A stretch of DNA of 64,000 nucleotides, taken from the NCBI GenBank assembly GCA_016926475.1, contig JAFGON010000023.1, positions 559-64,558 on the forward strand. The letters run 5' to 3'. Under the pieces are notes generated by a model that was not told where the DNA came from, searched no databases, and worked only from the letters and a program-made list of their open reading frames with translations. Position numbers and translations under genes: made by a program. This stretch comes from a candidate division WOR-3 bacterium (lineage in GTDB: Bacteria > SDB-A). Every line of letters starts with the position of its first letter. Position 1 is the first letter of the stretch. Shown one piece after another: positions 21,453-38,043 of this stretch.

Positions 21453-21491
21453 CTTTCCTCCGATGCTTGTCTTTTGAAAATATTATAATGT

Positions 21492-21527
21492 AAAAAAAGG
21501 GGGGTGGAAACCCCCCTTTTTACTTTT
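21492..21527. terminator. bidirectional intrinsic terminator (G6-tggaaa-C6 hairpin flanked by A7 and T-rich runs) ending the giant T9SS protein gene
   Basis: aaaaaaaggggggtggaaacccccctttttacttttt. Confidence 0.7.
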
Positions 21528-24500
21528 TACCTGACGTGCAGGAATTTCCCGTTTTCTGAGCCAAAATCAGTCCTGAGCATCCAGAAATACGTTCCAGCTG
21601 AAAGGCTTGTCCCTCTGTCGTCTTTTCCGTCCCAACTGACAATGTGAGTGCCTGCCGGCAGGAAAGTCTCGATTTCTCTGACCTGTCTTCCTGAAATGTC
21701 ATAGACCAGCCATCTAACCGAGGAATTCCCGGGGAGAGACAGCCTGATAGATACCTCGTCCATAAACACGTTGGAAGAGGCAAGTCTGACCGAAAATACT
21801 TCGCTGGGTCCGATTGCTTCTGAAGAAGACTCCATGCCCATCGTTTTTTTGGTCTTAAGCACGAGCCTGTAAGCATCCGACAAAGCGCCAGAGGAGTTTC
21901 TGCCCCCGACAAGGAAGAAATCCCGTACTTCCACGGTGTCTGAAGAACCTTCCGCTTCCCTTGCGGTTATCGAGGCGCTTGAAAGGGGAGAAGGAAGATT
22001 GTCTATTTGATACCAACCATAACCGTTTTCATAGAGGTACGAATTTGCCGAAAACACACCCGAACTCTGACCTCCCGCAAAGACCATGTATGAACCAGAT
22101 GAACCCGCGGAAATTTTACCGGTGTTTCTAAGAGGTGTTCTGTAGTCCGTGCTCCAGTTTATCACGACGGGAGAGGCCGCGCTCACCCTTCCGAAATAGA
22201 CGTTGCCCCCGTAGATATCCCCTCCGGCCAGCGCAATGCCTTCCCTTGAACTTACGGAAAGACCTCCTTCAAAACCTCCGGGAAGAGGAGAAGCCAACAT
22301 GAACTCTTCTGAATTTTCGTCAAAGAAATAACATGAAGGCTTTTCTGTCAAATTGCTCTCGATCACGTAGATGTAATCGCCTCCGATGCCTTCAAAAAAC
22401 GCCAGCACCGGCGAGTTGACGGTGTTGGGTAAGTCCTGGGTCTGGAAGCTTCCAGTTAACTTGTCAAAGATAATTAGTTTTCCGGCGAGAGAAGAGTCGG
22501 AACTCAGCATATAAACTTTGTCCGTGGCGCTGACTCCCTGAGCGTCGGTTATTTTGTAAGGAATGGAAGAAACAACCGACCAGACGTTGCCAGTGGCGTC
22601 GTATTTCATGTGAAGCGTGTCTCCGAATACATTGACATCCCCCGCGTCGTCTATCCAAGAAACAGGACCGGCGACGGCTATAGGCATGTCGGCTATCGGC
22701 TCCCATGACGGCGTGACGCATCTTACAGAGTAAATTGAGGTGTCGTTATGGGGATTCGCGTCTCCGGGGTATTCGATTATTATTTTCTTTATGTAGTGGT
22801 GGTCTTCGACAAGGTCCACGTCTCCAAAATCGACTATGACGCTGTCCAGATAAGAAAGCCCCGTGACGTCGCGGGTTTCATTCATCAGGACTGATCCGCT
22901 GTTTATGTCGGTCACGACGGCTCTTACAGAGAAGTTCGCCGTCTGAGTCCCGTTGTTTTTGACAACTTCTCTTATACTGCTAGACCCCGCGGGTTGGAAG
23001 ACACCCTGTATGTTCGGGTCTCCCCCTCCGACAAAAGCGTCTTTGTCCACCGAGGAGCTCAGGTAGATGTTGTCTATTACGCACGCGCCGTAGTTCTGGG
23101 TGGCATAGTAGGCAAAAGCCACTTCAATTTTAGAAGCGTTCGCGAACGAATCGCTTACGTCGGCTGAGTCAAGCGCCCTGAAGCTCGGAGTCGTCGCCCT
23201 GTAGTATGTCTTTATCTCCTGCCAAGCGGTCCAGGAGCCTTCTTTCAATCCGCACATCAAGACTTTTATCGAGTCGTAGGCGTTGTTGAAGCCTATCCCC
23301 CAGACAAAATACTGAAGGTCTACAGGGTTCCATTCCGCAGGCGATTTTATCGTGTCCACCAGAGGAGTGCTGTGGGATGAAGTATTGCCTATCCAAGCGC
23401 TGTAGTTTCCGGCGTTGTCGAGTTCGAGAGAACTCACTGTCCCTTCGTCTCTTATGTTCCAGCCGTTGGGCCAGTTTACGCTTACTGTGTGCGTCCAGTC
23501 CCATTTCGCCTGATCCTCGAAGTTCCAGACAACTTCCTCGAGGTATGGTCTGTTTAGAAGCCAGACATTGTCTATGCCGAAGAACCTATCGTAAGAGGGA
23601 CCTTCCCTGTGTGTGTATATCACACCGACCTGGACGCTGTCCGCGCCAAAAAGCTGGAGTATCTCCTGGTAAAACCAGTTGGGGTTTGTGTTTGTGGTGT
23701 AGAAATAAACCGCCTCCCAGTCTCCCCAGACCGTGTTTCTGAAAGTCCTCAACATGACTATGGCGGTATCGCCTTGAACGCTTGTGCTCTTTCTGAGGCA
23801 GCCTGTCCAGCATAGATACTGATAATCCACAGACACGGGGGCTGAGGGTGAAAATGTCGTGTCGCATACGTAGTTTTTCCCGGTTCCTATAGCCCACATG
23901 CTCCAATTGTCCCCACTCGTCATCTCCCATCCAGAGTACCATGAGGAGGATTTTCTCTCCCAATTCGAGGATATCTTCCACCCTTGGTTGCCGGGTTCGA
24001 ACGTCCAAGGAGGGTCGAAATAACCGGAAGCGCCTACCTCGATATAGTGCGGTGGAGACCATTGGCCTATGAGCGTTGTGTCTGACTGGATTCTAGCTCT
24101 CGTCCTTATCCCGTAAAGACCTTCGGCTGACCATTGGTGTATGGCGTTTCTGTCGGTGCTCCAACTGGAATAAGCGCTGTCGCCCCAGCTGAACTGGTAT
24201 TCGAGAGTCCCCATTCCTGTAATAGCAGAATCGGAGAGGAAAGCGTAGTTTGTCGACACGTATCCCCACGTTGGTCCGAAGGGAGGGTGTAGAGGTCCTA
24301 TCAACGGACGCATAAAAGTGTCCACCCTTATATCGTCAATGTAGAATCCTGGTCCGTTTCCTGTCGTCCCGTTGTTATCGGAGAGCCTCCAGAGAATCTG
24401 CAGATCCGTGTAGTTTTTTATACCGGTCAAATTGACGCTGTAGAGGGTCCAGTTGGACGAAGACCCCGTCCAGCCGGGCAAAGTCGCTCCCATCCAAGAT

Positions 24501-26569
24501 ACGTTGAATGTTCCCGTGTAAATCGGATTTACATTTTCGCTCGGGATCGTGTCCCAATTTCTTCCGTTGCTGTTCCATCCGCTCGGCATTGAAGCGGAGC
24601 CGTAAAACAAATCAACGCCGTCTTCGTTGTAAGCGCTTTCGTACCACATCCAGAAGAAAAGAACCGCTGAATCGGCAAAAGACGTGTTGATATCCGGAGT
24701 TCTGAACCAACTCGCATTTTGATCGTATATTCCGTCGAGGTCTGTCGCGGTGACGTTCACGCCCGACCTGGCCGACAAGGGGCCAACTACGGGTATTCCC
24801 CTCTGCCAGTCACCGGAAAAATAGTATCCGGCGGTGTCCATCTCGAACTCAAACCCGCTGTAATAAACAGTCCTGGCGTGAAGGGCGACGGTCAAATGTT
24901 CAGGAGACCACCCGGAAAGCCTTGTAGTGTCGCCGGAATCTCTGACCCTCGATCTGACGAAATACGTCCCTACCTCGTCGTAAGTTTTCTGTGCTAAGGG
25001 GTAGATATTCCATCCGGAATAGGTCCCGTCTCCCCAGTCGAATTGGTATTCGACCGCTCCAGCGACAACTTCAGAAGTGAAGTTGTATGAATTATAAGTT
25101 ATACAGGTATCCGGACCTGTCGGCGCGGTAGTGGGTCCCGGTATCAGCATAACTGTGTCGAGTCTTATATCGTCTATGTAAAAACCTGCTCTGTTTCCGG
25201 TTGTTCCGTCGTTGTCCCCGAGCCTCCAAAGAAGTCTTAAATCCGTGGCGTATTTGTACGGGGTCAGGTCCACCTGGTAGAGCGTCCAAATAGGATTCGA
25301 ACCTGTCCAGCCGGGCATGGTCGTGCTTGTCCACGTGACGTTGTAGCTGCCTGTGTATGCGGGGACTATGCTCGCGCTCGGCACGGTGTCCCAGTAATAA
25401 CCCGCGTTGTTCAGCCCCCACGTGAAGGAAGCGCTTCCTACCCAGAGGTTGACTCCGTCGTAATCCTGGCGGGAGTCATACCACATCCAGAAATCGAGGA
25501 TGACCGAATCGCACATTGAAAGGTTTACCTCGGGCGTGTTCAGCCAGCTCGCGTTCGTGTAGTAATTTTCGTTTAACCTGGTCGCCCAAACATTTCCCCC
25601 GCTTCGGGCTCTAAACGGACCTGAAAGCGGAATACCCCACTGCCAGTCCCCGAGCTGGTGCAGGCCGACGAAACCTCCGTCGTCGACTTCAAAACCCCAA
25701 TAATAAGCGGTTTTCGGAGTCACCATGACGGCGAGAAGAGGTGGGGACCAGTTTGAAACCAGCGAACTGTCGTTGGCGTCACGGATCCTGGTCTGGACGA
25801 AATACGTTCCGGGGGTGGTCCAGGAGCGGGAAGACGAGGTTGAAATATCCCACGCCGAATAGCCACCGTCCCCCCACGAGAACTGGTATTCGTAATCTCC
25901 TGGTACGACTTCCGAAGTATAGACGTAATTTGTCTCTACGAGTCCGCTGTCAGTCCCTAAAGGTGCCGTCGTTGGACCCGGGATGTTTCCCCCCTGAAAC
26001 GTCATTATTGAGATGTTGTCCAGACCCAGGTAAAAGTCGGGCCTGAGAGGGGAACCTCCCCCTCCCCTGTAGGCAAAACCTAACTGAATGGTGTCATAAC
26101 CCATTGCGTAAGATGAGATGTCGACGGAATCCCATATCGAAAGATCTGTGCCGTAATAATATTTCAACTGCTGCCAGTTCGTCCAAGCACCCGCGGCACA
26201 GCTCCGTATAAGAATTGAAGCGGTGTCGCGGTCTCTGCCAGCCCTGTAATTGTAACCTATGGAATACTTCAGCCATTGAGTGTAGAAAAGAGAGTCCGAA
26301 ATCTTGGGCGAATAGAGAGTGTCCCTGAGGACATAGTTGCCGGCTCTGTTGCTGCATATCCACATGCTCATCGTCAATGGGTCAAGAGGCCTTATGGCTT
26401 CCTGGTCGTAAACCCTCCACTGCCACCTGCGGGGCCAGTTTTGACCCTGTATTCTCTTGGCGGAGTTCCATCCGTCGGCCCAGGGATCTGTCTCAAAATC
26501 CCAGAAATGATAAGCCGACAGAGTGTAAGCTGTAATCAGCAAACTCAAAAAAATTACTATTTTTTTCAT
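21527..26569 (-). CDS. giant (~1680 aa) secreted multidomain protein with a T9SS C-terminal sorting domain, containing three tandem [PKD-like + ~190-aa] modules
   Basis: Signal peptide MKKIVIFLSLLITAYTLSA. Three PKD-like motifs (YEYQFSWGDGGYSAWD, VEYQFDWGDGTYSGWN, LEYQFSWGDSAYSSWS). Each is followed by a GxxxYYxGFE…DWQWGIP…NASW…FWMWY domain. C-terminal …VRWLVYDISGRQV…SAGTYFWMLRTDFG… is a CTD. GGAGG RBS lies inside the pilY1-like stop region. Confidence 0.65.
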   Translation of the reverse strand: MKKIVIFLSLLITAYTLSAYHFWDFETDPWADGWNSAKRIQGQNWPRRWQWRVYDQEAIRPLDPLTMSMWICSNRAGNYVLRDTLYSPKISDSLFYTQWLKYSIGYNYRAGRDRDTASILIRSCAAGAWTNWQQLKYYYGTDLSIWDSVDISSYAMGYDTIQLGFAYRGGGGSPLRPDFYLGLDNISIMTFQGGNIPGPTTAPLGTDSGLVETNYVYTSEVVPGDYEYQFSWGDGGYSAWDISTSSSRSWTTPGTYFVQTRIRDANDSSLVSNWSPPLLAVMVTPKTAYYWGFEVDDGGFVGLHQLGDWQWGIPLSGPFRARSGGNVWATRLNENYYTNASWLNTPEVNLSMCDSVILDFWMWYDSRQDYDGVNLWVGSASFTWGLNNAGYYWDTVPSASIVPAYTGSYNVTWTSTTMPGWTGSNPIWTLYQVDLTPYKYATDLRLLWRLGDNDGTTGNRAGFYIDDIRLDTVMLIPGPTTAPTGPDTCITYNSYNFTSEVVAGAVEYQFDWGDGTYSGWNIYPLAQKTYDEVGTYFVRSRVRDSGDTTRLSGWSPEHLTVALHARTVYYSGFEFEMDTAGYYFSGDWQRGIPVVGPLSARSGVNVTATDLDGIYDQNASWFRTPDINTSFADSAVLFFWMWYESAYNEDGVDLFYGSASMPSGWNSNGRNWDTIPSENVNPIYTGTFNVSWMGATLPGWTGSSSNWTLYSVNLTGIKNYTDLQILWRLSDNNGTTGNGPGFYIDDIRVDTFMRPLIGPLHPPFGPTWGYVSTNYAFLSDSAITGMGTLEYQFSWGDSAYSSWSTDRNAIHQWSAEGLYGIRTRARIQSDTTLIGQWSPPHYIEVGASGYFDPPWTFEPGNQGWKISSNWERKSSSWYSGWEMTSGDNWSMWAIGTGKNYVCDTTFSPSAPVSVDYQYLCWTGCLRKSTSVQGDTAIVMLRTFRNTVWGDWEAVYFYTTNTNPNWFYQEILQLFGADSVQVGVIYTHREGPSYDRFFGIDNVWLLNRPYLEEVVWNFEDQAKWDWTHTVSVNWPNGWNIRDEGTVSSLELDNAGNYSAWIGNTSSHSTPLVDTIKSPAEWNPVDLQYFVWGIGFNNAYDSIKVLMCGLKEGSWTAWQEIKTYYRATTPSFRALDSADVSDSFANASKIEVAFAYYATQNYGACVIDNIYLSSSVDKDAFVGGGDPNIQGVFQPAGSSSIREVVKNNGTQTANFSVRAVVTDINSGSVLMNETRDVTGLSYLDSVIVDFGDVDLVEDHHYIKKIIIEYPGDANPHNDTSIYSVRCVTPSWEPIADMPIAVAGPVSWIDDAGDVNVFGDTLHMKYDATGNVWSVVSSIPYKITDAQGVSATDKVYMLSSDSSLAGKLIIFDKLTGSFQTQDLPNTVNSPVLAFFEGIGGDYIYVIESNLTEKPSCYFFDENSEEFMLASPLPGGFEGGLSVSSREGIALAGGDIYGGNVYFGRVSAASPVVINWSTDYRTPLRNTGKISAGSSGSYMVFAGGQSSGVFSANSYLYENGYGWYQIDNLPSPLSSASITAREAEGSSDTVEVRDFFLVGGRNSSGALSDAYRLVLKTKKTMGMESSSEAIGPSEVFSVRLASSNVFMDEVSIRLSLPGNSSVRWLVYDISGRQVREIETFLPAGTHIVSWDGKDDRGTSLSAGTYFWMLRTDFGSENGKFLHVR

Positions 26570-26580
26570 CTTCCCCTCCA

Positions 26581-29337
26581 TCAGTAAACTTCGTTCCAGT
26601 AGACGTATTTCTTTTTAAATCCTGGACCTGTTATCTCTCTGATTATAGGTCCGGAACTGGTCATCACAATGACCACAGGTCCGTCAGGACCGACAGTGAC
26701 CTGCGGAGAGGAAGGGACTCCAATGTGTCCGAGGTCTATAGCCTCCAAGAGTCTGCCTTCGAGCAGCGACGCGACATACATTCTCGCGTAACCCGCTCCA
26801 ATGTCGCAGGGGCCTGCTTCTGCTGTGTCGGGGGCGAATGTCGTCCAATATACGTTGTTGCTGTAAATGAGAGGAAGAGACGTGACTTTCTCTCCGGGGT
26901 GGGTGTGCCTGTAGTAATACCCGTAATCACCAGGAGGGGTCGCTGCTGTCGTCAACTCGGCCATGTCGGATATTGTCGCCGCCGCGCCGGATGCCGGAGG
27001 CGATTTGAGCATTAGGAAGTAACCGACTTTCGTTGTGTCCATTGGGTTGTCCCTGTTTCCGGAACCCCAGCAATACCAGTGTTCTCCGCTGAAATCTTGA
27101 GCTACAGCGACGGGGAAAAAGCAAGTCATGTCGGCGTCGGCCGGGACTCCCGCGCTCCCGCTGAAAGCTGTATAAACCGACCAATTTGAAGGATTTGTAT
27201 CTGATTCTGTGTCCATTATCAGGAGGTTTCCGCCCAGATCCGGAGCAACCACCATGTCGACGAAGCCGTTTACGTTCATATCCGTCATCGCCAGAGAAGC
27301 CGGCACTCCGTTTCCGTTGGGGTTTTCCCATCCTTTTGCCCATGCGGTGTTTCCGGTCAAAGCGTAAAAAGCGAAGAAATCTCCCGTGTCCGCTACGAAA
27401 GATCCTGAAGTGTCGGGGACGTATCCCCCACCCATGAAAAATCCCCACATGGGAATTGCCGTGTCGTTGCTGACGGGGTCCACATCCACTTTGAACTGAC
27501 CCGCTGTGGGCTGGGACCAGGTGTCTCCAAACCTTTTATAAAGGCCTCCGATGAGAGTTCCGGATATTTCGGTGATCAACTTGGGATAAGAAGAAGTGTC
27601 TGTCGGCGCCGGCACCTCGGTTATATCGAGAATTATGTAGTTGTTGCCGCCTTCTCTCTGCCCCACAATCAAAATTGTTCGCCAGTCGGTCGGGTCTTTC
27701 ACACCGTCTCCGTCCAAGTCGGCCCACAAATCGGCGGCGGTGACCGGTCCGTCTAAAATATAGGTGTGCTGGTTGTCGAGCGCCCAAACCCTGAGTTTGT
27801 TCATCGCGAATTTCGGCACCCAAGCCCAGACTTCATGCCCGGTAGAGGCGTCTATACAGTGAAGCGTACCCGTGTTTGTACCGACGTACACCCTTTTTCT
27901 GCTGTCTCTGTAAGCGTGGTTTTTTCTGTAAACCACGTATGACGGGTCGCCTGTGTAAAATGGGCTCGGGGCGCCTATCATCAGAGGAGCGCTGTGAAAT
28001 ATGTCTCCCATCTTCCATCCAGGAGACGCGTTGCTGTAACCCTCTCTCGTCCTCTGGACGATGAGGTCTTTTTCCCAGGCGGTGCCGACGTTGACTTCCG
28101 AGGGCAGGACATTCAGAAAACTGAAGTCGGATTTGAGTCCAAGCTGATTCGTGTAGAAAATTTTTCTGCTCGCGGAAGGGGTCTGCTGAAGAGATTCTCC
28201 CGCGGTCCAGATTTCAGAACCCAAAAATGTGTCGCCCGTGAAAACGACAGCTCTGAGCTGACCATCCCAAAACCCTCCTCCCTGAGGACGGAAAGTCGCG
28301 TAAACTATCGCCGTGTCGCTTATCATAGTCCTGACAACAGGGACACTCGCCGGTGAGAACGAAAAGTTGTTCTCGAGAATCGACTGGAAAATATCATGCA
28401 GGGATTGAGCGAGCTCATCGGCGGTCTGAGCTATATAGGCGTAACCCTCGCAGTAATGAAAAGAAGGAGGCAGGGCTTGATAGCCCGTCGAGTAGGCGGA
28501 TTTTGGGTTGTACCATCCGTTTGATGACCCCCAACCGCTTCCAATGGGTTGTGGCCATGTCCACGGATTGTGAACGTGTGTGTGGGGGGGGTTGTACATC
28601 ATGTCTGAATAGTTGTATTTATCGAGATTGTCGGTCCCTCCCCAGTATGCCGCCCAGTTCAGTTCGTTTCTTCCTTTTTGTGTTATTCCTGTGCCGAAAC
28701 CGACCATGAAAGCCGGAATATCTCTGTCTTGGTTGCTCACCGAGGCTTCTCGGACAAGCGACCAGCTTCCGAGCCAGTCGTTTGATTCGGTTATCTGGGT
28801 GTAAGACGCGTTTGTTCCATAGCCGTTTGATTCCCCGTCAGTTATATGTATCAGGTAATAACTCCTGCAGTCGAGGTCTGGATGGGTTGAGTCGTATTCG
28901 TGTATCCATTTTGAAGAAAAGTAAATCGCAGGGCCGTTAGGAGTCCAACCTCCATTTGTGGTGTAGTTGATGTGGGACCATATCGTCGAATAGGGCGTCC
29001 CGAAAGTGTCCGCTCTCAAAGAACCCGTCGCCTCCCCGGGCAGATAGATATACGGACCGGGGTTGTACGTTCCCGAAGGGGTGTTATAAAAAAATCCAGT
29101 TGCCAGATCGACGCCGAGAATATCCCTGTCGGAGTCTTCCACCACTCCGTCTTTGTCTGCGTCGAGAAGGCTTTTTATGACCTGCAGAGCCTGGGTTATT
29201 CTCGATCCGGCCATGCTGCCCGACCTGTCGAGAAAAATCATGGCCGCAGGTTCAGCCGCGACGCGGAACAGGACTTCATCGTTGGCGAGCAGCAAAGCGG
29301 GAAAGACAAGCAAGATAAATAAATTTTTCCACTTCAT
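26581..29337 (-). CDS. pilY1: PilY1/PilC-like type IV pilus tip adhesin with an N-terminal von Willebrand A domain
   Basis: Signal peptide. MIDAS motif FLDRSGSMAG plus ITDGES. C-terminal VYVGTNTGTLHCIDASTGHEVWAWVP matches the PilY1 beta-propeller signature. Confidence 0.65.
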   Translation of the reverse strand: MKWKNLFILLVFPALLLANDEVLFRVAAEPAAMIFLDRSGSMAGSRITQALQVIKSLLDADKDGVVEDSDRDILGVDLATGFFYNTPSGTYNPGPYIYLPGEATGSLRADTFGTPYSTIWSHINYTTNGGWTPNGPAIYFSSKWIHEYDSTHPDLDCRSYYLIHITDGESNGYGTNASYTQITESNDWLGSWSLVREASVSNQDRDIPAFMVGFGTGITQKGRNELNWAAYWGGTDNLDKYNYSDMMYNPPHTHVHNPWTWPQPIGSGWGSSNGWYNPKSAYSTGYQALPPSFHYCEGYAYIAQTADELAQSLHDIFQSILENNFSFSPASVPVVRTMISDTAIVYATFRPQGGGFWDGQLRAVVFTGDTFLGSEIWTAGESLQQTPSASRKIFYTNQLGLKSDFSFLNVLPSEVNVGTAWEKDLIVQRTREGYSNASPGWKMGDIFHSAPLMIGAPSPFYTGDPSYVVYRKNHAYRDSRKRVYVGTNTGTLHCIDASTGHEVWAWVPKFAMNKLRVWALDNQHTYILDGPVTAADLWADLDGDGVKDPTDWRTILIVGQREGGNNYIILDITEVPAPTDTSSYPKLITEISGTLIGGLYKRFGDTWSQPTAGQFKVDVDPVSNDTAIPMWGFFMGGGYVPDTSGSFVADTGDFFAFYALTGNTAWAKGWENPNGNGVPASLAMTDMNVNGFVDMVVAPDLGGNLLIMDTESDTNPSNWSVYTAFSGSAGVPADADMTCFFPVAVAQDFSGEHWYCWGSGNRDNPMDTTKVGYFLMLKSPPASGAAATISDMAELTTAATPPGDYGYYYRHTHPGEKVTSLPLIYSNNVYWTTFAPDTAEAGPCDIGAGYARMYVASLLEGRLLEAIDLGHIGVPSSPQVTVGPDGPVVIVMTSSGPIIREITGPGFKKKYVYWNEVY

Positions 29338-29346
29338 GTTTCCCCC

Positions 29347-29877
29347 TTACCTTGTCCCTTGAATTCCGGACGGATCCACGACGACGGCTACTGGAAGACA
29401 AGCTCTTCCAGAACCGAGTTGTATCTCCATCACCGTGTAGAAAATTCCTTGGTTCGTGAAAATTTCACCGTCGATTTCGACAGCGTAATGCCACGCTTCT
29501 CTCGACAAAATCTTACCCATAAATATTACTTTGACTCCTTCGGGCGATCTTATGGGAAACCCTGGGTCGTAACCCTTGAGCCTTTCTATATCAAAGCCGT
29601 ATTCGTCCGAGCCGTGGTAAAAAATTACCACTGGGTCGTAGACAAAAAAACCGGTCGGGAGAGAGGGGTCGTCTTTCAGCTCGTAGTCTTCAAGGATTTC
29701 TTTCTTTATATCGTCTGTTTCAAGGGCGGTAGAAGAGACGGATAGATCAGACCTCAAAGCGAACCATTTGACAGCCTCTCTCTCCTGAGGAGGGTTTAAA
29801 TCCATGTCTTGTTCAAAAGCTGAAACGTTTTGGGAAAGAAAAAACGTCAGCATAATAAATATCGATATTTTGACCAT
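29347..29877 (-). CDS. secreted hypothetical protein of the pilus tip operon (start moved to the ATG behind GAAGGAGG)
   Basis: Signal peptide MVKISIFIMLTFFLSQNVSA and a strong RBS. The longer ORF-track version overlaps the pilX-like gene. Confidence 0.5.
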   Translation of the reverse strand: MVKISIFIMLTFFLSQNVSAFEQDMDLNPPQEREAVKWFALRSDLSVSSTALETDDIKKEILEDYELKDDPSLPTGFFVYDPVVIFYHGSDEYGFDIERLKGYDPGFPIRSPEGVKVIFMGKILSREAWHYAVEIDGEIFTNQGIFYTVMEIQLGSGRACLPVAVVVDPSGIQGTR

Positions 29878-29888
29878 CTGACCTCCTT

Positions 29889-30332
29889 CTACGGATAGCC
29901 CGTAGTCCCGCCGGGGACCGGCGCCGCTGTTGTTCCGACGAGGATTTGAGAACGTCCTTTTCTCGGGGACGTTATCTGCTCTTCGCCGGTTATCTTGTAT
30001 GAATAATTCAGAGCGACAAGAGCTCTTTCGTTTGCCGTCCAGGAAGAAGTGTAACCCGGTAAAATTTTTGTTGTCTTGGTCATTGTGTCTACGTCGCATT
30101 TGACGTTTCCTATCGTGAAAGTGTCTCCATGGTCGGGTTGGTAAACAGTTCCCAGTGTCGCCGTCACTCTTTCGGCTCCGGCTTCAGTGCCTCTGAAGGC
30201 CTGCGTTTTATGCTTTATGACGTCTGTGATTCTGAGATCAGACGTCGCGAGCATAAAAGCTGCGCCGACAAGAATAGCTCCCGCGACAAGTATGCTCAAA
30301 GCCAAGATGAGCGCTATTCCTTTTCTTTTCAT
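29889..30332 (-). CDS. pilX: PilX-like minor pilin (PilX_N domain)
   Basis: MKRKGIALILALSILVAGAILVGAAF matches the PilX N-terminal helix, which lacks Glu5. Position is consistent with the fimU-pilVWX order. Confidence 0.55.
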   Translation of the reverse strand: MKRKGIALILALSILVAGAILVGAAFMLATSDLRITDVIKHKTQAFRGTEAGAERVTATLGTVYQPDHGDTFTIGNVKCDVDTMTKTTKILPGYTSSWTANERALVALNYSYKITGEEQITSPRKGRSQILVGTTAAPVPGGTTGYP

Positions 30333-30341
30333 CTGCCCCCC

Positions 30342-30947
30342 TTACATCCTGCTTCTTATTGTTACGACCCGGCTGAAAGTTATCGTGTCCGCCGAAGTCG
30401 GATTTTTCACGGCTCTCTGGTTGTAGGTCGTCACCCTCAGTTCTACGTGGGTGACCGCGAGGTTGTTCGCCGTCACAGCTCCGGTGACGTCGTACGGTAT
30501 TATGTCAAAACTCTCAACGCCGGGAATCAAAAGGTTATAGACCAGAGCACCCGCGCTGTATCGGACGTTGTAAACGTTCTTTGAAGCTGCGTCGTAGACG
30601 ATTCCGAAGGTTTCATAGACTGTGTCGAGCGATCCGTTGCCAAAAGTGGCTTCAGGGTAAACGTCTGCGAAATAGCAAAACGAATCGTTTCCTGAAGCAT
30701 TGTAGTGGAGTTTAAAAATCTTGAAAATGGTCGTGTCCTGAAATTCCCTTGTGTTTCCGGGTATTGCCCTCATCTCTCTCGAAGCTATCCTCAAAATAGC
30801 TTCTGCAGACTGTATCGCTTCGGACCTGCCTTCGATAATAGATTGGTGGTTTCTCTCCTGAGTGTAATAATACACGAGGACGCCCACGAGAGCCAAACCC
30901 ATGGTCAGGGCGCCCAAAAGTTCGACCAAAGAAAATCCTTTTTTCAT
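30342..30947 (-). CDS. pilW: PilW-like minor pilin with a prepilin N-terminal methylation motif
   Basis: MKKGFSLVELLGALTMGLALVG (G|FxxxE). RBS GGAGAGGTGA. The longer ORF-track start overlaps the upstream gene. Confidence 0.55.
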   Translation of the reverse strand: MKKGFSLVELLGALTMGLALVGVLVYYYTQERNHQSIIEGRSEAIQSAEAILRIASREMRAIPGNTREFQDTTIFKIFKLHYNASGNDSFCYFADVYPEATFGNGSLDTVYETFGIVYDAASKNVYNVRYSAGALVYNLLIPGVESFDIIPYDVTGAVTANNLAVTHVELRVTTYNQRAVKNPTSADTITFSRVVTIRSRM

Positions 30948-30952
30948 AATTC

Positions 30953-31303
30953 TCACCTCTCCGCCACATAGGTGTGAATTGTATCGATGATCTGCTGACC
31001 TTGCCTGCTCCTCCAAGAGTATTCGACAGTCATGCTCTTTGCCCTCAGGCCTGACGTGTCGGGATAGACAGTCCATGTAATATGTGTCGTCCCGAAAATG
31101 GAGTCGCCACTCGCTATCGTCTCGTAGTCGATGCTCTTTATCCATTCAAGAAAATCCTCTAAGTCGTTTATCGCTTGTTTCTCGATTCGGACGCTCAATT
31201 CAGCCTCCATGGTCCTGACCCTCGCCGCTCCGAGGGCGACAATACCAATTGCAAAGAGGACGACGACCACAAGAACTTCGAGATATGAAAATCCTTTTTT
31301 CAT
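30953..31303 (-). CDS. pilV: PilV-like minor pilin
   Basis: MKKGFSYLEVLVVVVLFAIGIVALG prepilin motif. 116 aa. Confidence 0.55.
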   Translation of the reverse strand: MKKGFSYLEVLVVVVLFAIGIVALGAARVRTMEAELSVRIEKQAINDLEDFLEWIKSIDYETIASGDSIFGTTHITWTVYPDTSGLRAKSMTVEYSWRSRQGQQIIDTIHTYVAER

Positions 31304-31314
31304 AAAAATCTCCC

Positions 31315-31776
31315 TCAGTATTTGATGATTCTGGCAATGCCGGTAGCGGGAATTACTTTTATGGAAAGCCTTCTCGTGCCGCTCTCAATCATGACAGAAT
31401 CTCTCGGAGACGAACCGAGAGAAAGAGAAAGAGATCCGGTTGGAAGAAAAAAAATCTCCGAATACTGGCCGGAATTGAGAGTGACGTTGCTCGGAATATC
31501 CCCTTTGATGTCGAGACTCGTCGCCGATCCTCCGACACCTCCCTGCCATTTGCAGACTTCATAACGCCCCGCAGTCGTGTTGAATCTTACGAGAGTCGTA
31601 TCTGCTTTTGTTATAGCGAGCTCTCTCGCCTCCTTGACGGCCCCGACGACCTGCCTTGTCGCCCTGTCGACTTTGTCGTTTAAAACTCTGACAAAAGGAA
31701 TCGATATTGAGACTATCAGCCCCATCAGCACGACCACGACCATCAATTCTATTATCGAAAAACCCTTTTTAGACAT
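31315..31776 (-). CDS. fimU: FimU/FimT/GspH-family minor pilin
   Basis: MSKKGFSIIELMVVVVLMGLIVSIS prepilin motif. C-terminal region is GspH-like. Confidence 0.55.
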   Translation of the reverse strand: MSKKGFSIIELMVVVVLMGLIVSISIPFVRVLNDKVDRATRQVVGAVKEARELAITKADTTLVRFNTTAGRYEVCKWQGGVGGSATSLDIKGDIPSNVTLNSGQYSEIFFLPTGSLSLSLGSSPRDSVMIESGTRRLSIKVIPATGIARIIKY

Positions 31777-31902
31777 TTATCCCTCCCATTATCTGTAAAC
31801 ATTTATAGGTATAGCAAAACCTTTGCCATAAAACTTGATTTTTATAAACCACAAAATAATGTGGCATATCATAAAAAGGTTTTTTTTTGTGTATAAATAT
31901 TG

Positions 31903-31936
31903 TGAAAATATTTTCAAGTTGTGAAAATATTTTCAC
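31903..31936. promoter_or_regulatory. two copies of a 14-bp perfect palindrome, TGAAAATATTTTCA, centred 19 bp apart in the pilin-operon promoter region
   Basis: tgtgaaaatattttcaag ttg tgaaaatattttcac. The second copy extends to the 16-bp palindrome GTGAAAATATTTTCAC. They overlap a candidate -35 (TTGAAA) / -10 (TATACA) on the minus strand. Confidence 0.55.
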
Positions 31937-31940
31937 ATTG

Positions 31941-31985
31941 CAGAAAAAAAACAAAGGAGAGTCCTGCTGTATAGTAGGACTCTCT
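31941..31985 (-). terminator. intrinsic terminator of the RND efflux operon (9-bp GC-rich stem followed by a T-run on the minus strand)
   Basis: GGAGAGTCCT-gctgtatagt-AGGACTCTC hairpin. Adjacent A8 on the plus strand is the T-run for the minus-strand transcript. Confidence 0.65.
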
Positions 31986-32008: not shown

Positions 32009-35000
32009 TCAATCGCTTTCTGTTATGTCTACCGGTTCCAAATCATGGGGCATTTTACCTGCCTTGTTGATAAAAGAATAGACAACCGGAATTACTAACA
32101 GGGTCAAAAGGGTTGCAAAGAGAAGACCGAAAATTATCGGCCATACCATCGGTCCCCAGAATTTATATTTCATACCAATTCCGAGGGCGAGCGGAAGCAT
32201 TCCTCCCATCGTCGTCACGGAAGTCATTAGAATTGGCCTTAATCTGACAGGGCCTGCTTTTCTTAGAGCTTGGTATATCGGCATGCCGTCTTTCCTCAGC
32301 TTGTTTGTGTATGTGACAAACACAATAGCGTCGTTTACAACTATTCCTACCAGCGCGATAGTCCCAATGAAAGGCATCACTCCGAAGTGGTTTCTCGTTA
32401 TCAAAAGACTGAGAAGAACCCCGATTATGGAAAATGGAACCGTGAACATAATTACAAATGGATGTGAAAGAGATTGAAACTGGATGACCATGATTAGATA
32501 AATCAGCGCCACACCGATTAAAAGAGCAATTCCAAGACCGCCGAAGTCTTCCTCCATCTGCTGTTTGTCACCGGTTATGTTTATCGTGTAACCTGGCGTC
32601 TGCAGAGAATCGATGAAAGGTTCGAGTTTTTTTATTACATCGAACGCGAGAACGCCGTATACATCCGAACTCACCGTGACCTGCCTCATTCCATCGACCC
32701 TGTTTATCTGAGAAAACCCCGACGTCACGTTTATGTCGGCGACTTGCTCGAGCGGAACTGTTGAACCCGACGCCGTGGGCACTGGAAAAGACCTTAGGAC
32801 ATCAAGCGTTTTGTCGCTTTCCTCAAGTTCTACCCTGACTTTGACCTTGTCGTCTCCGATGTTCATTTCCGTAGCGTCTGTTCCGTTGAAGGAAACAGAA
32901 ACGGGCTGAACAATGTCCGCAGGGGTGACCCCGTAATAAGCGGCTTCTCTTCTTTTGATTATGACTTCGACCTCTGGAGAGCCCGATCCGAAATCGTCTT
33001 TCACGTTGCGAGTTCCTTCCTGCTGACGGAGAAACTGCTTTATTTTGTAGGCTATGTCCATCAAAACGTCTATGTTGTCACCTTTGATTTCAACCGTGAT
33101 CGGCGCACCTGAAGGCGGCCCCATGGATTCGCCTCTCATTTCGACTCTTGCCTCCGCAATTTCGTGCTTTATCGAATCGATTTTTGCAAGCAAAATTTCT
33201 CTGACTTCTATGTCTTTTTTGCCGGAGTTCTCAAACAATCGGACTTCTATCTGAGCGGTATTCCCGCTGACGTTTGAAGTGTACTTTTCGACCTCGGGTA
33301 TCTGAGCGATCAGGGCTTCAATCTTCTTTGAAATTTCGTCGATGTCCTCGGTGGGCGTGCCGGTTGGAACAGAGACGTTGACCGTGAACTGATCAAAACC
33401 GCTTGAAGGCCAAAGCTCGAAACCAACAACCGGAAGAAGAGCAAGAGACAGGATAAAAGCGGTCCCGGCGAATATAAGCGTTTTCACCCTGTGGTCGAGC
33501 GCCCAGTCGAGTATTTTCCTGTAGGTTCTCATTACTCTGGAGTTCACCCACCTGTCTCTTCTCTTGGCTGCTTTACTGTGATATATGAGGAATTTTGAAG
33601 CCACTGCAGGAATAACTAAATGGTCGACGAGAATAGACGAGGACAGGGCTATAATCACCGTTATCGGGATCAATTTCATGAATTCGCCGGTCACTCCCCT
33701 TATCATGAACATTGGGAAAAATGCGGCCATCGTTGTAAGGGCAGACGCGAGAATTGCGCCTCCCGTTTCGTCAATGCCTTTTCTGGCGGCGGTCATTTTA
33801 TCGTATCCGTATTCCAGATACCTGTATGTGCTCTCTATGACAATAATGGCCCCGTCCACTATCATGCCGACCAGAAGTATCATCGAGAAGAGAGACATGT
33901 TGTTCAATGAGTAACCCAGCAAAAACAAAGCTGCAAAAGATGTGCTTATTATCAGCGGAATGGAGATCATCACGAGCACGGCGTTTCTCCACCCTACACC
34001 TAAAACCAATATCAAAATTACAAGAATGGATCCGAATATCGCGTTTTGCTTGAGCTGGTTAAGGTTTTCGTTTATGTAATCTGACTGGTCAAAGGTTATG
34101 TCGAAGGAGATTCCCAGGGGAAGATTTTCCCGGATTATCTCGAGCTCTTCCCTGATTCTTTTGGAAATTCCGATTGTGTTGCCGTTTGTTTTCTTGTATA
34201 TGGCGAGCGTCACCGAAGGGTGGCTGTTGAAACGTGAATATGACGTCGCCTTCTCTAGTGTGTCGAGAACCGTAGAAATATCGGACAAATAGACCGGACC
34301 GTTAGCAGTAACCGTTATCACGGTGTTTTCAATATCCTCCTTGGAACGATAGGCGCCGAGGACTCTGAGGGTGTAGTCTTTCTCTCCGAGATTGATGCTG
34401 CCTGCCGGAAGATCTATGTTCGAACTGTTTATCCTTCCTATGATGAGTGGAATCGTCAGCCCGTATTCCCTGAGCTTGTCCTCTCTGAGCAGGACCATGA
34501 ACTGCCTTTCTCTTCCGCCGAATACGTCGACCCTCGAAACACCGCTGATGCCTTCGAAAATGGGGGCGATGTCGTCCGCGTATCTTTTCAGGTTTTCATA
34601 TGAGGTCTTATCCCCATTCTCGCTTTTGAGAGTCAGGAAAATCACGGGCATTTCGCTGAGTTTTATATCCCGAATTATAGGATCCATTGCGTCTTCAGGA
34701 AACTCGTGCTTTACTCTGTTGATTATCTCTTCTATGTCTCTCTTTGCATCGTCGTTATCGACTCCTATGTCAAATTCATACCAGATCTGAGCTCCGCTAT
34801 TTGAAGAGTATGAATAGACATGTTTGAGGTCTTCAATTCCTCTGGAGTCCTCTTCTACGATTTTTGAAATCTGCTTTTCAACCTCTTCCGGGGCGGCTCC
34901 AGGGTAGGGAATCGTCACCGAAATCCAAGGGATGTTGACATCGGGGACGAGTTCAACAGGTATTGAAAAATAAGCGTAAACACCGAAGAGAGCAGCTGCT

Positions 35001-35056
35001 ATCGCGACGATAAAAACAGTCAAACTCGAAGAAATTGCCAGCTGGGATATCTTCAT
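32009..35056 (-). CDS. RND family efflux transporter, inner-membrane permease (HAE1/AcrB-like)
   Basis: 1015 aa with 12 TM segments and two large periplasmic loops; typical AcrB architecture. Confidence 0.8.
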   Translation of the reverse strand: MKISQLAISSSLTVFIVAIAAALFGVYAYFSIPVELVPDVNIPWISVTIPYPGAAPEEVEKQISKIVEEDSRGIEDLKHVYSYSSNSGAQIWYEFDIGVDNDDAKRDIEEIINRVKHEFPEDAMDPIIRDIKLSEMPVIFLTLKSENGDKTSYENLKRYADDIAPIFEGISGVSRVDVFGGRERQFMVLLREDKLREYGLTIPLIIGRINSSNIDLPAGSINLGEKDYTLRVLGAYRSKEDIENTVITVTANGPVYLSDISTVLDTLEKATSYSRFNSHPSVTLAIYKKTNGNTIGISKRIREELEIIRENLPLGISFDITFDQSDYINENLNQLKQNAIFGSILVILILVLGVGWRNAVLVMISIPLIISTSFAALFLLGYSLNNMSLFSMILLVGMIVDGAIIVIESTYRYLEYGYDKMTAARKGIDETGGAILASALTTMAAFFPMFMIRGVTGEFMKLIPITVIIALSSSILVDHLVIPAVASKFLIYHSKAAKRRDRWVNSRVMRTYRKILDWALDHRVKTLIFAGTAFILSLALLPVVGFELWPSSGFDQFTVNVSVPTGTPTEDIDEISKKIEALIAQIPEVEKYTSNVSGNTAQIEVRLFENSGKKDIEVREILLAKIDSIKHEIAEARVEMRGESMGPPSGAPITVEIKGDNIDVLMDIAYKIKQFLRQQEGTRNVKDDFGSGSPEVEVIIKRREAAYYGVTPADIVQPVSVSFNGTDATEMNIGDDKVKVRVELEESDKTLDVLRSFPVPTASGSTVPLEQVADINVTSGFSQINRVDGMRQVTVSSDVYGVLAFDVIKKLEPFIDSLQTPGYTINITGDKQQMEEDFGGLGIALLIGVALIYLIMVIQFQSLSHPFVIMFTVPFSIIGVLLSLLITRNHFGVMPFIGTIALVGIVVNDAIVFVTYTNKLRKDGMPIYQALRKAGPVRLRPILMTSVTTMGGMLPLALGIGMKYKFWGPMVWPIIFGLLFATLLTLLVIPVVYSFINKAGKMPHDLEPVDITESD

Positions 35057-36120
35057 TTTTCAACTCCGGGCATATATTCGGGACACATCAGGCAGTTTAT
35101 AGGCGAACCGTCTTCTATGTAGTCCTGTCCCGCCACTATGACAGTGTCGCTGACACTTAGTCCTTCGAGAACGATACCGAAAGAATCGTTTATCTGTTCG
35201 ATGGATATCACGGTTCTAAGAGCTATTCCCCCGGAAGCCTTGAATACAACAGTCTCTCCTTCCTGCATCAAGACCGACTTCAGAGGGACTATAATCGCTT
35301 CTTCGAATCTTCCTATTTCTATCTGAGCAATGCCGATCATGCCTGGAAGTAGCGTTTTATCTAGATTTGAACATATCACTTCGACAGTAAACTTGCCTGT
35401 CTGCCTGTCCGCAGCCGGATAAATTCTGTTCACTGTCCCACCAAATATCCTGTCCGGGAAGGCGTCCACGCATATTTCCACTGGAGACCCTTCTTGGATT
35501 TTAGTGACATTTTCAGAGCTGACGCTCAGTTTGATTTTTACAGTGTCCATGTCGGCTATTCCGAAATACGGCATGCCAGGACTTGCCATCTCCTGAGGGT
35601 CAATTCCCCTCGATGTTATGGTGCCGTCAAAAGGAGCTTTTATCACTGACCCCGACATCGCGGACTGGGCGAGCATGAGGCCGGACTGGGCGCTCTGAAA
35701 AGCAGTCTGCGCTGCTTGAAATTGAGACTGAGACACAAGCCCTGAATTGAAAAGTTCTTCTGTCCGACTGAAGTCGTCCTGAGCTTTTTGAAAAGAAGCC
35801 TGGGCTTGTATATAGTTCGCGTAAAAGTCCGTCCCTTCGAGTGACGCAATAACGTCGTTTTTCTTCACATAGTCGCCAATTTCGACCGAGACGGAGAGCA
35901 CTCTTCCCCCCGATTTAAACGATAGATCAACTTCCATCTGTCCTTCGATTCTTCCTGAGGACCGTATTTTGTCAACAAACAAACCTTTCTCTATCTGTAT
36001 TGTTCTCACTGTCGAACTGAACGGATTTCTGTTGTTTTTCGGCTTTTTCGAGCAGCTCATTAAAAGAACAAGAACCGTTATTGAAACCAACACAAGGGCT
36101 TTAGAAGTATTACTTCTCAT
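35053..36120 (-). CDS. RND efflux periplasmic adaptor (membrane fusion protein)
   Basis: Lipoprotein signal (LLMSC). Coiled-coil plus beta-barrel HlyD-like domains. 4-nt overlap with the RND gene. Confidence 0.75.
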   Translation of the reverse strand: MRSNTSKALVLVSITVLVLLMSCSKKPKNNRNPFSSTVRTIQIEKGLFVDKIRSSGRIEGQMEVDLSFKSGGRVLSVSVEIGDYVKKNDVIASLEGTDFYANYIQAQASFQKAQDDFSRTEELFNSGLVSQSQFQAAQTAFQSAQSGLMLAQSAMSGSVIKAPFDGTITSRGIDPQEMASPGMPYFGIADMDTVKIKLSVSSENVTKIQEGSPVEICVDAFPDRIFGGTVNRIYPAADRQTGKFTVEVICSNLDKTLLPGMIGIAQIEIGRFEEAIIVPLKSVLMQEGETVVFKASGGIALRTVISIEQINDSFGIVLEGLSVSDTVIVAGQDYIEDGSPINCLMCPEYMPGVEK

Positions 36121-37399
36121 ATAGTCCTCCCTCGGAGATAAAACTCGTCAATACTCCCATAGAAGAGAGTAGTTTTGCGTAAGAAATATATATGCCGTAA
36201 TAAGATGCTATTTCTGCGAGTTTCGCGCTTTCAAGCGTATTCATGGCTTCGAACAGCTCAAGAGAAGTCGCCAGTCCATTTTTGTACATTTTGTCTGTCA
36301 GTTCGTAAGCTTCCTGTGACGCCCGGACTGTTTTCAACGCGCTTTCGTATTGAAGCATTGCCCCTTTGACTTCTCTGTAGCTCTGTTCCGTGGAACTCAG
36401 GGTCTGCGCATGAGTGTCGAGAAGAGCCAATTCCGCCCCCCTGACTTGGGAGGAAGCGCTTGAGTAATCCTGTATTCTCGCCGTCCCCTGAAAGAGAGTC
36501 CAGCTCAGCTGAACTCCTCCGTAGTAATTTGGTTCGCCGAACTCCCAATTGTTTCCGGACCAATTGTAACCTGCAAACGCGCTTAAAGTCGGAGAGAACG
36601 AAGACATCACATTCGTTTTTCCCGCCTTTGCTGAAGAAAGCGACGCATACGCGATTTCCATGCTGGGTGAGGCTAGAGCTATTTTTAAGCAGCTGTCGAG
36701 TTCTGGAAGTTGGACATCCATAAAAACAGGTTCCACGACATTTATGCTGGTCTTTTCTATTTGCAGAATATCGCAAAGGGAATTGACCGCGTTTTCCAAA
36801 TCGTTCTCGGCTTTTATAAGATTCGCCTCTTCTTGAGCTACCTGGACCTCCGACCTGGCGACGTCAAGGTTGGTCGCCATACCCACCCTCAGCATTTCCT
36901 GGGTCAAGTTTAGGTTGTCGTTAGCCATCTGAAGGGATTCTCTTGAAATTTTCAAGGATTTAGAAGCCTGAATAAGGCCCAAATATGAAGTCAGGATCCC
37001 CAGCGCTATTTGGTTTTGAGCAATTTCTCTGCCCTCCTGGGCTATTCTGACAACAGACGAATTCAGGGCGACGTTTGCCAGTCTAGACCCTCCCGTGAAA
37101 AGAGGCAACGAAAGAGAAAATCCGGTCTGATGGGTTCCCTTTGCTCTTATCACTACAGGATTTCCGTCTATTCCCGGCTGGGTTATTTCATCCGGATACC
37201 TTGTGTACGAAGAAGAAAACGACACCGTCGGCAGGAAATAAGAAAGCGACTTCCTGTAACCTGCTTTGGCTTGAAAAATTTCCTCGTCGGCTTCTCTTAT
37301 GCTTACATTGTTTTCAAGAGCTATTGACATCGCCTCATCAAGGCTCAAAGTCAGGCCCGACTGAGAGGCTATCGCTAGTAGCAGCGCAATATATAACAC
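36110..37399 (-). CDS. TolC-like outer-membrane efflux protein
   Basis: Two OEP repeats (…LDEAMSIALENNVSIREADEE…) and the beta-barrel/alpha-helical repeat pattern. Confidence 0.7.
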   Translation of the reverse strand: MLYIALLLAIASQSGLTLSLDEAMSIALENNVSIREADEEIFQAKAGYRKSLSYFLPTVSFSSSYTRYPDEITQPGIDGNPVVIRAKGTHQTGFSLSLPLFTGGSRLANVALNSSVVRIAQEGREIAQNQIALGILTSYLGLIQASKSLKISRESLQMANDNLNLTQEMLRVGMATNLDVARSEVQVAQEEANLIKAENDLENAVNSLCDILQIEKTSINVVEPVFMDVQLPELDSCLKIALASPSMEIAYASLSSAKAGKTNVMSSFSPTLSAFAGYNWSGNNWEFGEPNYYGGVQLSWTLFQGTARIQDYSSASSQVRGAELALLDTHAQTLSSTEQSYREVKGAMLQYESALKTVRASQEAYELTDKMYKNGLATSLELFEAMNTLESAKLAEIASYYGIYISYAKLLSSMGVLTSFISEGGLYEK

Positions 37400-37409
37400 T
37401 CCGCCTCCT

Positions 37410-38012
37410 TTATTCTTTTCTAAGTAAAACTCCGTTTTTAAAAATATTCATTGCGTTATAAACTGATCCTTGACTAGAAATTTTTTTCTCCCGTTTAAGC
37501 CCCGGAGAAATAGATCTGAAAATCAAATCGAAAAACAAACTCATAAAAAAGAACGCTATTTCTTCCGTTTTTAAATCCTTTCGTACTTCTGTTGATTTTT
37601 TACCTTTTTCGACCAAATCGACGAGAAACTCATACAATTCCGTCTTCTTCAAATGGATTTCTTCGAAAAATCTCTGCCTGTTCTTGACTATGTTTGGATT
37701 GTGAAGTATGAAAATAATCCCCGCGTATTCTGGGTTTTTCTTGAAAAGCCAGACTGAAGATTTGATGATTTTTTCGCATGAAGTAAAAAAACCGTCCTTT
37801 TCATCGTAGTTTTTTTCAACACTGCCCTTCATGCAGTCTATGACAAACAACACGCTCTGAAGGAAAAGTTCTTCTTTGTCTTTGAAATAAAGATAAAGGG
37901 TTCCCTTGGCAAGTTCTGCTTCTTCGGCGATTTCGTCGAGGGTGACTTCTCCAAAGTATTTTTTTGAAATGACTTTTAATACAGCTCTGATAATTCTCGT
38001 TTTTTTGTCCAT
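37410..38012 (-). CDS. TetR/AcrR family transcriptional regulator
   Basis: N-terminal HTH (TLDEIAEEAELAKGTLYLYFKDKEELF). Confidence 0.75.
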   Translation of the reverse strand: MDKKTRIIRAVLKVISKKYFGEVTLDEIAEEAELAKGTLYLYFKDKEELFLQSVLFVIDCMKGSVEKNYDEKDGFFTSCEKIIKSSVWLFKKNPEYAGIIFILHNPNIVKNRQRFFEEIHLKKTELYEFLVDLVEKGKKSTEVRKDLKTEEIAFFFMSLFFDLIFRSISPGLKREKKISSQGSVYNAMNIFKNGVLLRKE

Positions 38013-38025
38013 TAATCCCTCTTTC

Positions 38026-38043
38026 TGACTGACCGTTCAGTCA
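38026..38043. promoter_or_regulatory. candidate TetR operator: 18-bp inverted repeat TGACTGA-ccgt-TCAGTCA, 14 nt upstream of the tetR start codon
   Basis: Perfect 7-bp arms. Lies in the region divergent to the methyltransferase gene. Confidence 0.45.

Follow-up and report, generated by a model that had tools for sequence, protein, structure and literature searches.

At glnAp2 of enteric bacteria, the enhancer for NtrC consists of two adjacent dyad sites approximately 100–140 bp upstream of a −24/−12 promoter, and the two bound dimers nucleate an active oligomer that reaches the promoter through DNA looping. Promoters recognized by sigma-54 carry the −24/−12 signature GG-N10-GC (consensus TTGGCAT-N5-TTGCT; PMC6615313), and their upstream activating sequences (UAS) are located at least 100 bp, and mostly 100–250 bp, upstream, often in multiple copies (PMC6615313, PMC4641369, PMC3333781). 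UAS sites are commonly palindromic, with arms of 4–6 bp that are 3–8 bp apart, and include a large TGT-N10–12-ACA class (PMC4641369, PMC6615313, PMC3333781). It is well established that type IV pilin genes can be controlled by sigma-54 together with a PilR-type activator (PMC7170775; references in PMC3333781), as in the PilS–PilR systems of Pseudomonas aeruginosa (pilA), Myxococcus xanthus, Geobacter sulfurreducens and Xanthomonas oryzae (RpoN2–PilRX). In Desulfovibrio vulgaris, the sigma-54-dependent response regulator DVU2114 controls pilin and pilus-assembly genes (PMC3333781, PMC4641369), and sites of this type, most of which are palindromic (4–6-bp inverted repeats with 3–8-bp gaps), have been found and validated by comparative genomics and DNA-affinity-purification chip (DAP-chip) analysis. 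Here we analysed two tandem palindromes ahead of a minor-pilin operon in a 64-kb stretch of DNA (hereafter, the window; 44.5% G+C) from a candidate division WOR-3 bacterium. The palindromes probably represent the UAS of a sigma-54 promoter that drives an operon for minor pilins, PilY1 and a giant surface protein, and the element is real, conserved and almost certainly regulatory, judging from the sequence comparisons described below.

A string search of the window located the 14-bp perfect palindrome TGAAAATATTTTCA exactly twice (31903–31916 and 31922–31935). The copies are centred on 31909.5 and 31928.5, at a distance of 19 bp from each other, and lie between the terminator of a resistance–nodulation–division (RND) efflux operon and the start of a FimU-like gene, consistent with a preliminary description of this DNA. 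The second copy had also been recognized as longer than 14 bp, but the extension given, 16 bp, was too short: the copy is an 18-bp perfect palindrome (TGTGAAAATATTTTCACA; 31920–31937). Analysis with a repeat finder revealed that the whole element is a 19-bp tandem direct repeat (31900–31918 and 31919–31937) with 17 of 19 positions identical. On the minus strand, which encodes the pilin operon, the promoter-distal candidate enhancer site (site A, TGTGAAAATATTTTCACA, 31920–31937) is centred at approximately −126.5 from the predicted transcription start and the promoter-proximal candidate site (site B, CTTGAAAATATTTTCACA on the minus strand, 31901–31918) at approximately −107.5. These matches exceed chance expectation: when up to two mismatches were tolerated, TGAAAATATTTTCA matched the window six times (0.92 expected), a number reached in 0 of 100 shuffles; the 18-mer TGTGAAAATATTTTCACA, with as many as three mismatches tolerated, matched at these two places alone (0.06 expected); and a pair of TGAA-N6-TTCA sites (no more than one mismatch per site, period of 19–20 bp) was found once, where 0.04 would be expected. 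Near-matches at 306, 47711 and 53984 are within coding regions. Another near-match, TGAAAATATTATAA (21475–21488), is located between the terminator of a gene for a 1684-aa protein and a small lipoprotein-like gene (approximately 21150–21455, minus); it is a single site without a pair, overlaps a TATAAT-like −10 and is probably unrelated to the pilin palindromes.

On the same strand, between the palindromes and the first pilin gene, we found a predicted sigma-54 promoter (TGGCAAAGGTTTTGCT, TGGCA-N7-TGC; 31813–31828, minus) that is absent from the preliminary description. This sequence is the single match to TGGCA-N7-TGC in the 64 kb on either strand, with the −24 GG at 31826–31827 and the −12 GC at 31814–31815, and is located 37 nt ahead of the start codon. 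With the C of the −12 GC set to −12 (the convention used for all distances here), the transcription start is predicted near 31802, giving a 26-nt leader. The ribosome-binding site of the first pilin gene (GGGAGGG; 31781–31787, minus) follows, the GGAGG of which is invariant in an alignment of five orthologous regions. Given that the conserved −24/−12 element places the palindromes at approximately −107 and −126, they are in the position of an upstream enhancer rather than of an operator; a repressor is therefore unlikely, and the palindromes are better explained by an ATP-dependent activator of the bacterial enhancer-binding protein (bEBP) type. An A-tract that includes A9 (CAAAAAAAAAC; 31879–31889, minus) is located between the candidate enhancer and the promoter and may form an intrinsic bend that aids looping; A-rich stretches also come after the proximal site in the other loci.

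We compared six diverged orthologous upstream regions, that is, the window and five relatives, all of which are uncultured candidate division WOR-3 bacteria from metagenomes and metagenome-assembled genomes (MAGs). Four were found through the FimU-like protein (L002, L006, L009 and L010, with 79%, 76%, 53% and 57% identity, respectively) and one through PilY1 (L041, in GCA_049975185.1, 55% identity), and the pilus gene order of the window is common to the relatives. The intergenic DNA ahead of the first pilin gene is A/T-rich, almost fully diverged and otherwise unalignable, and three blocks are kept in all six regions: the ribosome-binding site, the site pair and the −24/−12 element. Alignment using MAFFT brought the site pair into register but mis-registered the promoter block and the first site of L010, and anchored pattern searches were therefore used. 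The promoter block TGGCA-N7-TGC is located 33–59 nt ahead of the start codon (TGGCAAAGTTATTGCA in L002, CGGCAAAGATATTGCT in L006, TGGCAGGATTTTTGCT in L009, TGGCATAGATTTTGCT in L010 and TGGCATGGATCATGCT in L041). A match to YGGCA-N7-TGC within 120 nt of the start codon was present in six of six regions and in no more than 0.2% of shuffles (P ≤ 0.002 per region). The region of L010 contains a second good sigma-54-like element (TTGGCATTTTTCCTGCT; 1422–1437, minus) that faces away from the pilin operon towards small open reading frames (ORFs) and a MarR-family gene, and no site pair was seen beside this element.

The site-pair block consists of two TGAA-N6-TTCA sites with a period of 19 or 20 bp in all six regions, an arrangement (no more than one mismatch per site, period of 19–20 bp) that occurs in no more than 0.3% of base-order shuffles (P ≤ 0.003 per region). 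Across the 174.6 kb of the window and related loci, and with periods of 18–22 bp allowed, these six pairs were the only ones, one per locus. Among the 12 sites, the half-site bases are nearly invariant (T 12, G 12, A 11 and A 11 on the left; T 11, T 12, C 12 and A 12 on the right), and with the flanking positions included (TR on the left, YA on the right) the consensus is TRTGAA-N6-TTCAYA, in which the inner TGAA and TTCA form the conserved core and the outer T and A are partly conserved. The centre varies freely and, as with GAGAAA in L006 and CTTTTG in L010, frequently lacks self-complementarity. Conserved half-sites around a free centre are the behaviour of a protein site rather than of a hairpin, and the pattern is that expected for a dimeric protein contacting two half-sites one helical turn apart. 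The sites are centred at −147.5 and −127.5 in L002, −149.5 and −129.5 in L006, −164.5 and −144.5 in L009, −126.5 and −107.5 in L010 (as in the window), and approximately −224 and −204 in L041, which has a possible third site near −162. The centres thus range from −107 to −224, with the −24/−12 element approximately 70–180 bp downstream of the pair. No RND operon is present upstream in L010, yet the distance from pair to promoter equals that of the window, indicating that the pair belongs to the pilin promoter and not to the efflux terminator.

The same layout is found in other bacteria. We scanned genome and metagenome collections for two perfect TGAA-N6-TTCA sites 5–6 bp apart, followed after 70–100 nt by TGGCA-N7-TGC, and obtained matches at 9 genome loci and 21 metagenome loci, whereas the pattern is expected by chance well under once per 600 Gb (a rough estimate that assumes uniform base composition). 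The search fixed only eight promoter bases, and nevertheless most matches show the extended TTGGCAY-N5-YTGCW; in most, the element is 13–46 nt ahead of an ORF. Most of the matches thus look like genuine sigma-54 promoters. This strict pattern needs four perfect half-sites, for which only the window, L002 and L041 qualify among the six orthologous regions, such that just a part of the regulon of the relatives can be found by the scan. None of the titled genome matches is WOR-3 and none of the matches, genomic or metagenomic, has a pilin-like first downstream ORF, which suggests that the source lineage is poorly represented in the scanned collections.

In two independent types of locus, a gene for a sigma-54 activator adjoins the module. 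In an Anaerovoracaceae MAG (L012, 28–4955; L023 and L040 are arranged likewise), the gene for a sensor kinase, the sensor domain of which is solute-binding, is followed by that for an NtrC-type response regulator (REC, Sigma54_activat and HTH_8, with GAFTGA), which ends five bases ahead of two identical TGAAAGAAATTTCA sites; these are followed by a sigma-54 promoter and a sodium:alanine symporter gene. In L029, two outward-facing modules of site pair and sigma-54 promoter (2378–2514, minus; 4236–4383, plus) flank a two-gene unit. One of its genes encodes a protein of 160 aa and the other a Sigma54_activat protein of 389 aa, in which a DAFTGA loop but no HTH_8 could be recognized. Genes for an ankyrin-repeat protein and an AAA protein are located downstream on one side of L029. 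A six-frame search of the window and L001–L040 for the motifs GAFTGA and ESELFGH matched only L012 and L023.

Sixteen further loci (L011, L016, L018–L021, L024, L025, L028, L030, L031, L033, L035–L037 and L039) share a strongly conserved module, TGAAAACGAGTTCA-N5-TGAAATAAAATTCA, approximately 90 bp and TTGGCATGATTTCTGCT, which is mostly followed by a gene for a 92–98-aa protein (MGNLxSxKKK...) and, in L019, next by a ClpB-like AAA ATPase. These loci come from MAGs and sediment metagenomes, of which four are titled (Desulfobacteraceae (two), Nitrospinaceae and a delta proteobacterium), and no activator gene was seen within the sixteen.

On the basis of this layout, each TRTGAA-N6-TTCAYA site upstream of the pilin operon would bind one dimer of a bEBP, that is, an AAA+ activator with a C-terminal helix-turn-helix, probably a two-component response regulator acting in the manner of PilR or NtrC. 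Dimers bound 19–20 bp apart would be on roughly one face of the helix, and the two adjacent dimers would nucleate the active ring-shaped oligomer. The approximately 75–180 bp of A/T-rich DNA between enhancer and promoter would loop, ATP hydrolysis would remodel the sigma-54 RNA polymerase at TGGCA-N7-TGC (31813–31828, minus) to open the closed complex, and transcription would begin near 31802 and cover the seven-gene pilus operon. Such a switch would imply that the lineage encodes rpoN.

Several observations weigh against a sigma-54 enhancer. Pfam annotation of nearly all ORFs in the window revealed neither Sigma54_activat nor rpoN, gene tables of the flanks of the related loci contained no rpoN or bEBP gene, and in the literature we found no paper connecting WOR-3 with RpoN. 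A full consensus for integration host factor (IHF; WATCAR-N4-TTR) between enhancer and promoter was found in none of the five regions scanned (the window, L002, L006, L009 and L010). The site pair is not present in the more distant PilY1 operons (L042–L044, 27–30% identity); of these, L044 does contain a near-sigma-54 element (TGGCATGGAATTTGT). The two sites can also pair with each other as a DNA hairpin in most orthologues, with stems in L002, L006 and L010 that are weaker than that of the window. Finally, a tandem TGAA-N6-TTCA pair is located directly ahead of a regulator-like gene (winged-helix-like domain and nucleotidyltransferase) in an unclassified bacterial MAG (L014, 1346–1470), a Nealsonbacteria MAG (L015, 6425–6548) and a metagenome (L038, 871–1001). 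The sigma-54 pattern match in these three loci falls inside coding sequence and is therefore not a plausible promoter, and the element there resembles an ordinary operator of identical geometry. Factors other than bEBPs can thus use such a pair, which is not diagnostic by itself.

These three loci, together with the lack of a bEBP gene in the window or related loci, are points in favour of a reading in which a dimeric regulator of another family (for example, of the CRP/FNR, ArgR, MarR or Xre type) binds the palindromes and modulates the pilin operon from there, whether by co-activation, by anti-activation or by blocking read-through from the RND operon, and in which any sigma-54 activator would act without binding the sites. 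The 18-mer also resembles the CRP-like TGTGA...TCACA and the ARG box (wnTGAATwwwwATTCAnw). We nevertheless regard this reading as unlikely, given that the sites are 75–180 bp upstream of a conserved sigma-54 element and that bEBP genes adjoin this module in unrelated loci. A sigma-54 promoter requires an activator, which is usually bound in that upstream range (PMC4641369, PMC6615313). The individual candidates fit poorly as well. A CRP-type site (TGTGA-N6-TCACA, −41.5 to −93) was rejected on the basis of a spacing of N8 rather than N6 (TGTGA-N8-TCACA), outer TG/CA that are only partly conserved and the lack of a conserved sigma-70 promoter. An ArgR operator (TNTGAAT-N4-ATTCANA) was rejected given that the T of the ARG box at position 5 is not conserved (A in seven sites, C in one, G in two and T in two) and that the target is a pilin operon. 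The preliminary description held that no regulator is encoded adjacent; the Pfam annotation indeed identified no cognate factor nearby, but the efflux operon next to the pilin operon begins with a TetR gene. This TetR was rejected as the cognate factor because it has a different palindrome of its own (38026–38043) and because the sites are also present in L010, where the TetR/RND cluster is missing; moreover, the 18-mer (with up to three mismatches) occurs nowhere else in the window. The dyad of the efflux operon has a 7-4-7 structure (TGACTGA-CCGT-TCAGTCA), stands 14 nt ahead of the start codon of TetR (38012, minus) and is probably the TetR operator of that operon.

The preliminary description had instead proposed an operator, for a repressor or an activator, that overlaps a sigma-70 promoter. 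The comparisons support a dyad-symmetric element that binds protein and goes with the pilin operon, and show it to be conserved; they do not support the overlap with a sigma-70 promoter, and we consider this model very unlikely. Both hexamers exist on the minus strand (−35 TTGAAA, 31912–31917; −10 TATACA, 31890–31895) with a 16-nt spacer, and a promoter scan of this A/T-rich region returned a few weak sigma-70-like matches. However, the pair is weak: TATACA does not end in T, and the TTGAAA/TATACA pair was missing from the scan output. The hexamers are absent from the orthologous regions, such that no conserved −35/−10 stands at the sites, and L002 is without any sigma-70-like site there. The model also implies a leader of approximately 105 nt without conserved sequence and leaves the conserved TGGCA-N7-TGC unexplained. 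It is highly improbable that the copies serve as a structural element, pairing into a long A/T-rich hairpin or cruciform behind the RND operon that insulates or that terminates transcription in a back-up or bidirectional role. The window does contain a 16-bp stem (−14.4 kcal/mol as DNA, z = −8.6) that was listed by a terminator scan, but adjacent copies of one palindromic consensus are always able to pair, so that the hairpin is not independent evidence. L009 folds no better than shuffled sequence, L010 has the pair without an upstream operon, and conservation is on TGAA/TTCA rather than on pairing of the centre. An intrinsic terminator was rejected, given a stem with 3 G–C pairs in 16 and no T-run; a canonical G+C-rich terminator is already located ahead of the pair in the window, L002, L006 and L041, and that of the window (31941–31984) is the real one. 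Searches against Rfam gave sub-threshold matches only (E above 0.5). To a recent functionless 19-bp tandem duplication, to which the agreement of the units of the window at 17 of 19 positions would point, we give almost no credence: six lineages share the pair although its centres and flanks have diverged, which already contradicts this explanation.

Read as a sigma-54 enhancer, the locus resembles several described systems without coinciding with any of them. Like glnAp2, it has two adjacent dyad-symmetric sites at a similar distance from a −24/−12 element, but the NtrC sites differ in sequence (TGCACC-N5-GGTGCA), spacing (approximately 32 bp versus 19–20 bp here) and role (nitrogen assimilation). 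The likeness to the PilS–PilR systems is that a pilin gene stands behind a GG-N10-GC promoter with NtrC-family-type sites, here predicted, further upstream; the differences are the target, which here is not the major pilin but the minor-pilin/PilY1 operon, and the host, an uncultured WOR-3 bacterium. Neither pilS nor pilR is present within the 64-kb window. PilR of P. aeruginosa is reported to recognize tandem (C/G)TGTC repeats, which TRTGAA-N6-TTCAYA does not appear to match. With DVU2114 the locus shares a bEBP site, here predicted, upstream of pilin genes (a likeness of described architecture), and the targets of DVU2114 differ in being Tad/Flp-type pilins. The 18-mer of the window reads TGT-N12-ACA, similar to the TGT-N10–12-ACA class of Clostridiales enhancer-binding proteins and to NifA and FhlA sites, and the Clostridiales targets also have multiple sites, mostly 100–250 bp upstream of TTGGCAT-N5-TTGCT (PMC6615313). 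Unlike that class, the sites here are conserved in the inner TGAA/TTCA and only partially in the outer T/A. TyrR/PhhR boxes (TGTAAA-N6-TTTACA), which are bound by a protein of the bEBP family and often occur as adjacent pairs, are likewise 18-bp dyads with a non-conserved 6-bp centre, a resemblance that is not evidence of homology; here, the fourth base is R (seven G and four A among the 12 sites) and the sixth-from-last base is T, not A. In the literature we found no paper using TGAA-N6-TTCA or its variants. The closest target is that of FimS–AlgR, which controls fimU-pilVWXY1E in P. aeruginosa (Marko et al. 2018, as cited in PMC7170775). As in that system, the operon here comprises minor pilins and PilY1. 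AlgR, however, is a LytTR response regulator and not a bEBP, and the promoter class and activator family proposed here therefore differ.

The target operon contains seven genes on the minus strand (21527–31776), as delineated by Pfam matches, prepilin leaders and the gene order common to the relatives. The first gene (31315–31776) encodes a FimU/GspH-like prepilin identical in protein sequence to NCBI MBN1150028.1 of a candidate division WOR-3 MAG, and is followed by two genes for further prepilins (30953–31303 and 30342–30947), a PilX-like gene (29889–30332), a gene for a 168-aa protein (29347–29853), a PilY1-like gene (26581–29337) and the gene for the 1684-aa protein (21527–26581); the prepilins of the operon carry the leader sequence KKGFSxxE. 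In addition to a C-terminal FlgD_ig domain, the 1684-aa protein matches type IX secretion sorting domains below threshold and Kelch, PKD and CHU_C weakly; it may be a pilus-associated or secreted adhesin. A gene for a protein of 1674–1681 aa comes after PilY1 in all three relatives that reach that far (L002, L006 and L041). Upstream of the palindromes, the efflux operon is also encoded on the minus strand, in the order TetR (37410–38012), outer-membrane efflux protein (36110–37399), membrane-fusion protein (35053–36120) and AcrB-type RND pump (32009–35056). It ends in the intrinsic terminator (31941–31984, minus), a G+C-rich hairpin (31957–31984; stem GAGAGTCCTAC...GCAGGACTCTC) followed by a T-run (31941–31956) and distinct from the palindromes; equivalent G+C-rich hairpins are located upstream of the site pair in L002, L006, L009 and L041. 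The regulators seen among the annotated ORFs of the window were two TetR proteins, one ROK protein and one hybrid kinase. Elsewhere in the window, a UmuD-like gene (Peptidase_S24) and a UmuC-like gene (IMS, DUF4113) at 52940–54697 (minus) form a translesion-polymerase pair.

The arrangement itself is textbook and biologically expected, and opens no new question; the new features are the lineage, the motif and a target made up of minor pilins and PilY1 instead of the major pilin. The case also illustrates how −35/−10 look-alikes in A/T-rich DNA can mislead, given that a few orthologous regions sufficed to move the promoter by approximately 100 bp and to change the sigma factor. A possible but still doubtful extension is that TRTGAA-N6-TTCAYA pairs with a 19–20-bp period mark an undescribed bEBP recognition class beside sigma-54 promoters in unrelated phyla, and that the pilus priming or tip module of WOR-3 is under a signal-gated sigma-54 switch. 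If true, the class would span WOR-3, Desulfobacteraceae-type MAGs, an Anaerovoracaceae MAG and others, and the minor pilins, PilY1 and the 1684-aa surface protein, rather than the major pilin, would be under the switch, a regulatory logic unlike the AlgR or PilR schemes of Proteobacteria. For WOR-3, a phylum known from metagenomes only, the promoter class, enhancer motif and predicted start together provide a testable model of type IV pilus regulation. As the motif and promoter occur together once per locus in approximately 175 kb, they represent a specific probe that, in complete genomes, could define the regulon and lead to the activator and the signal.

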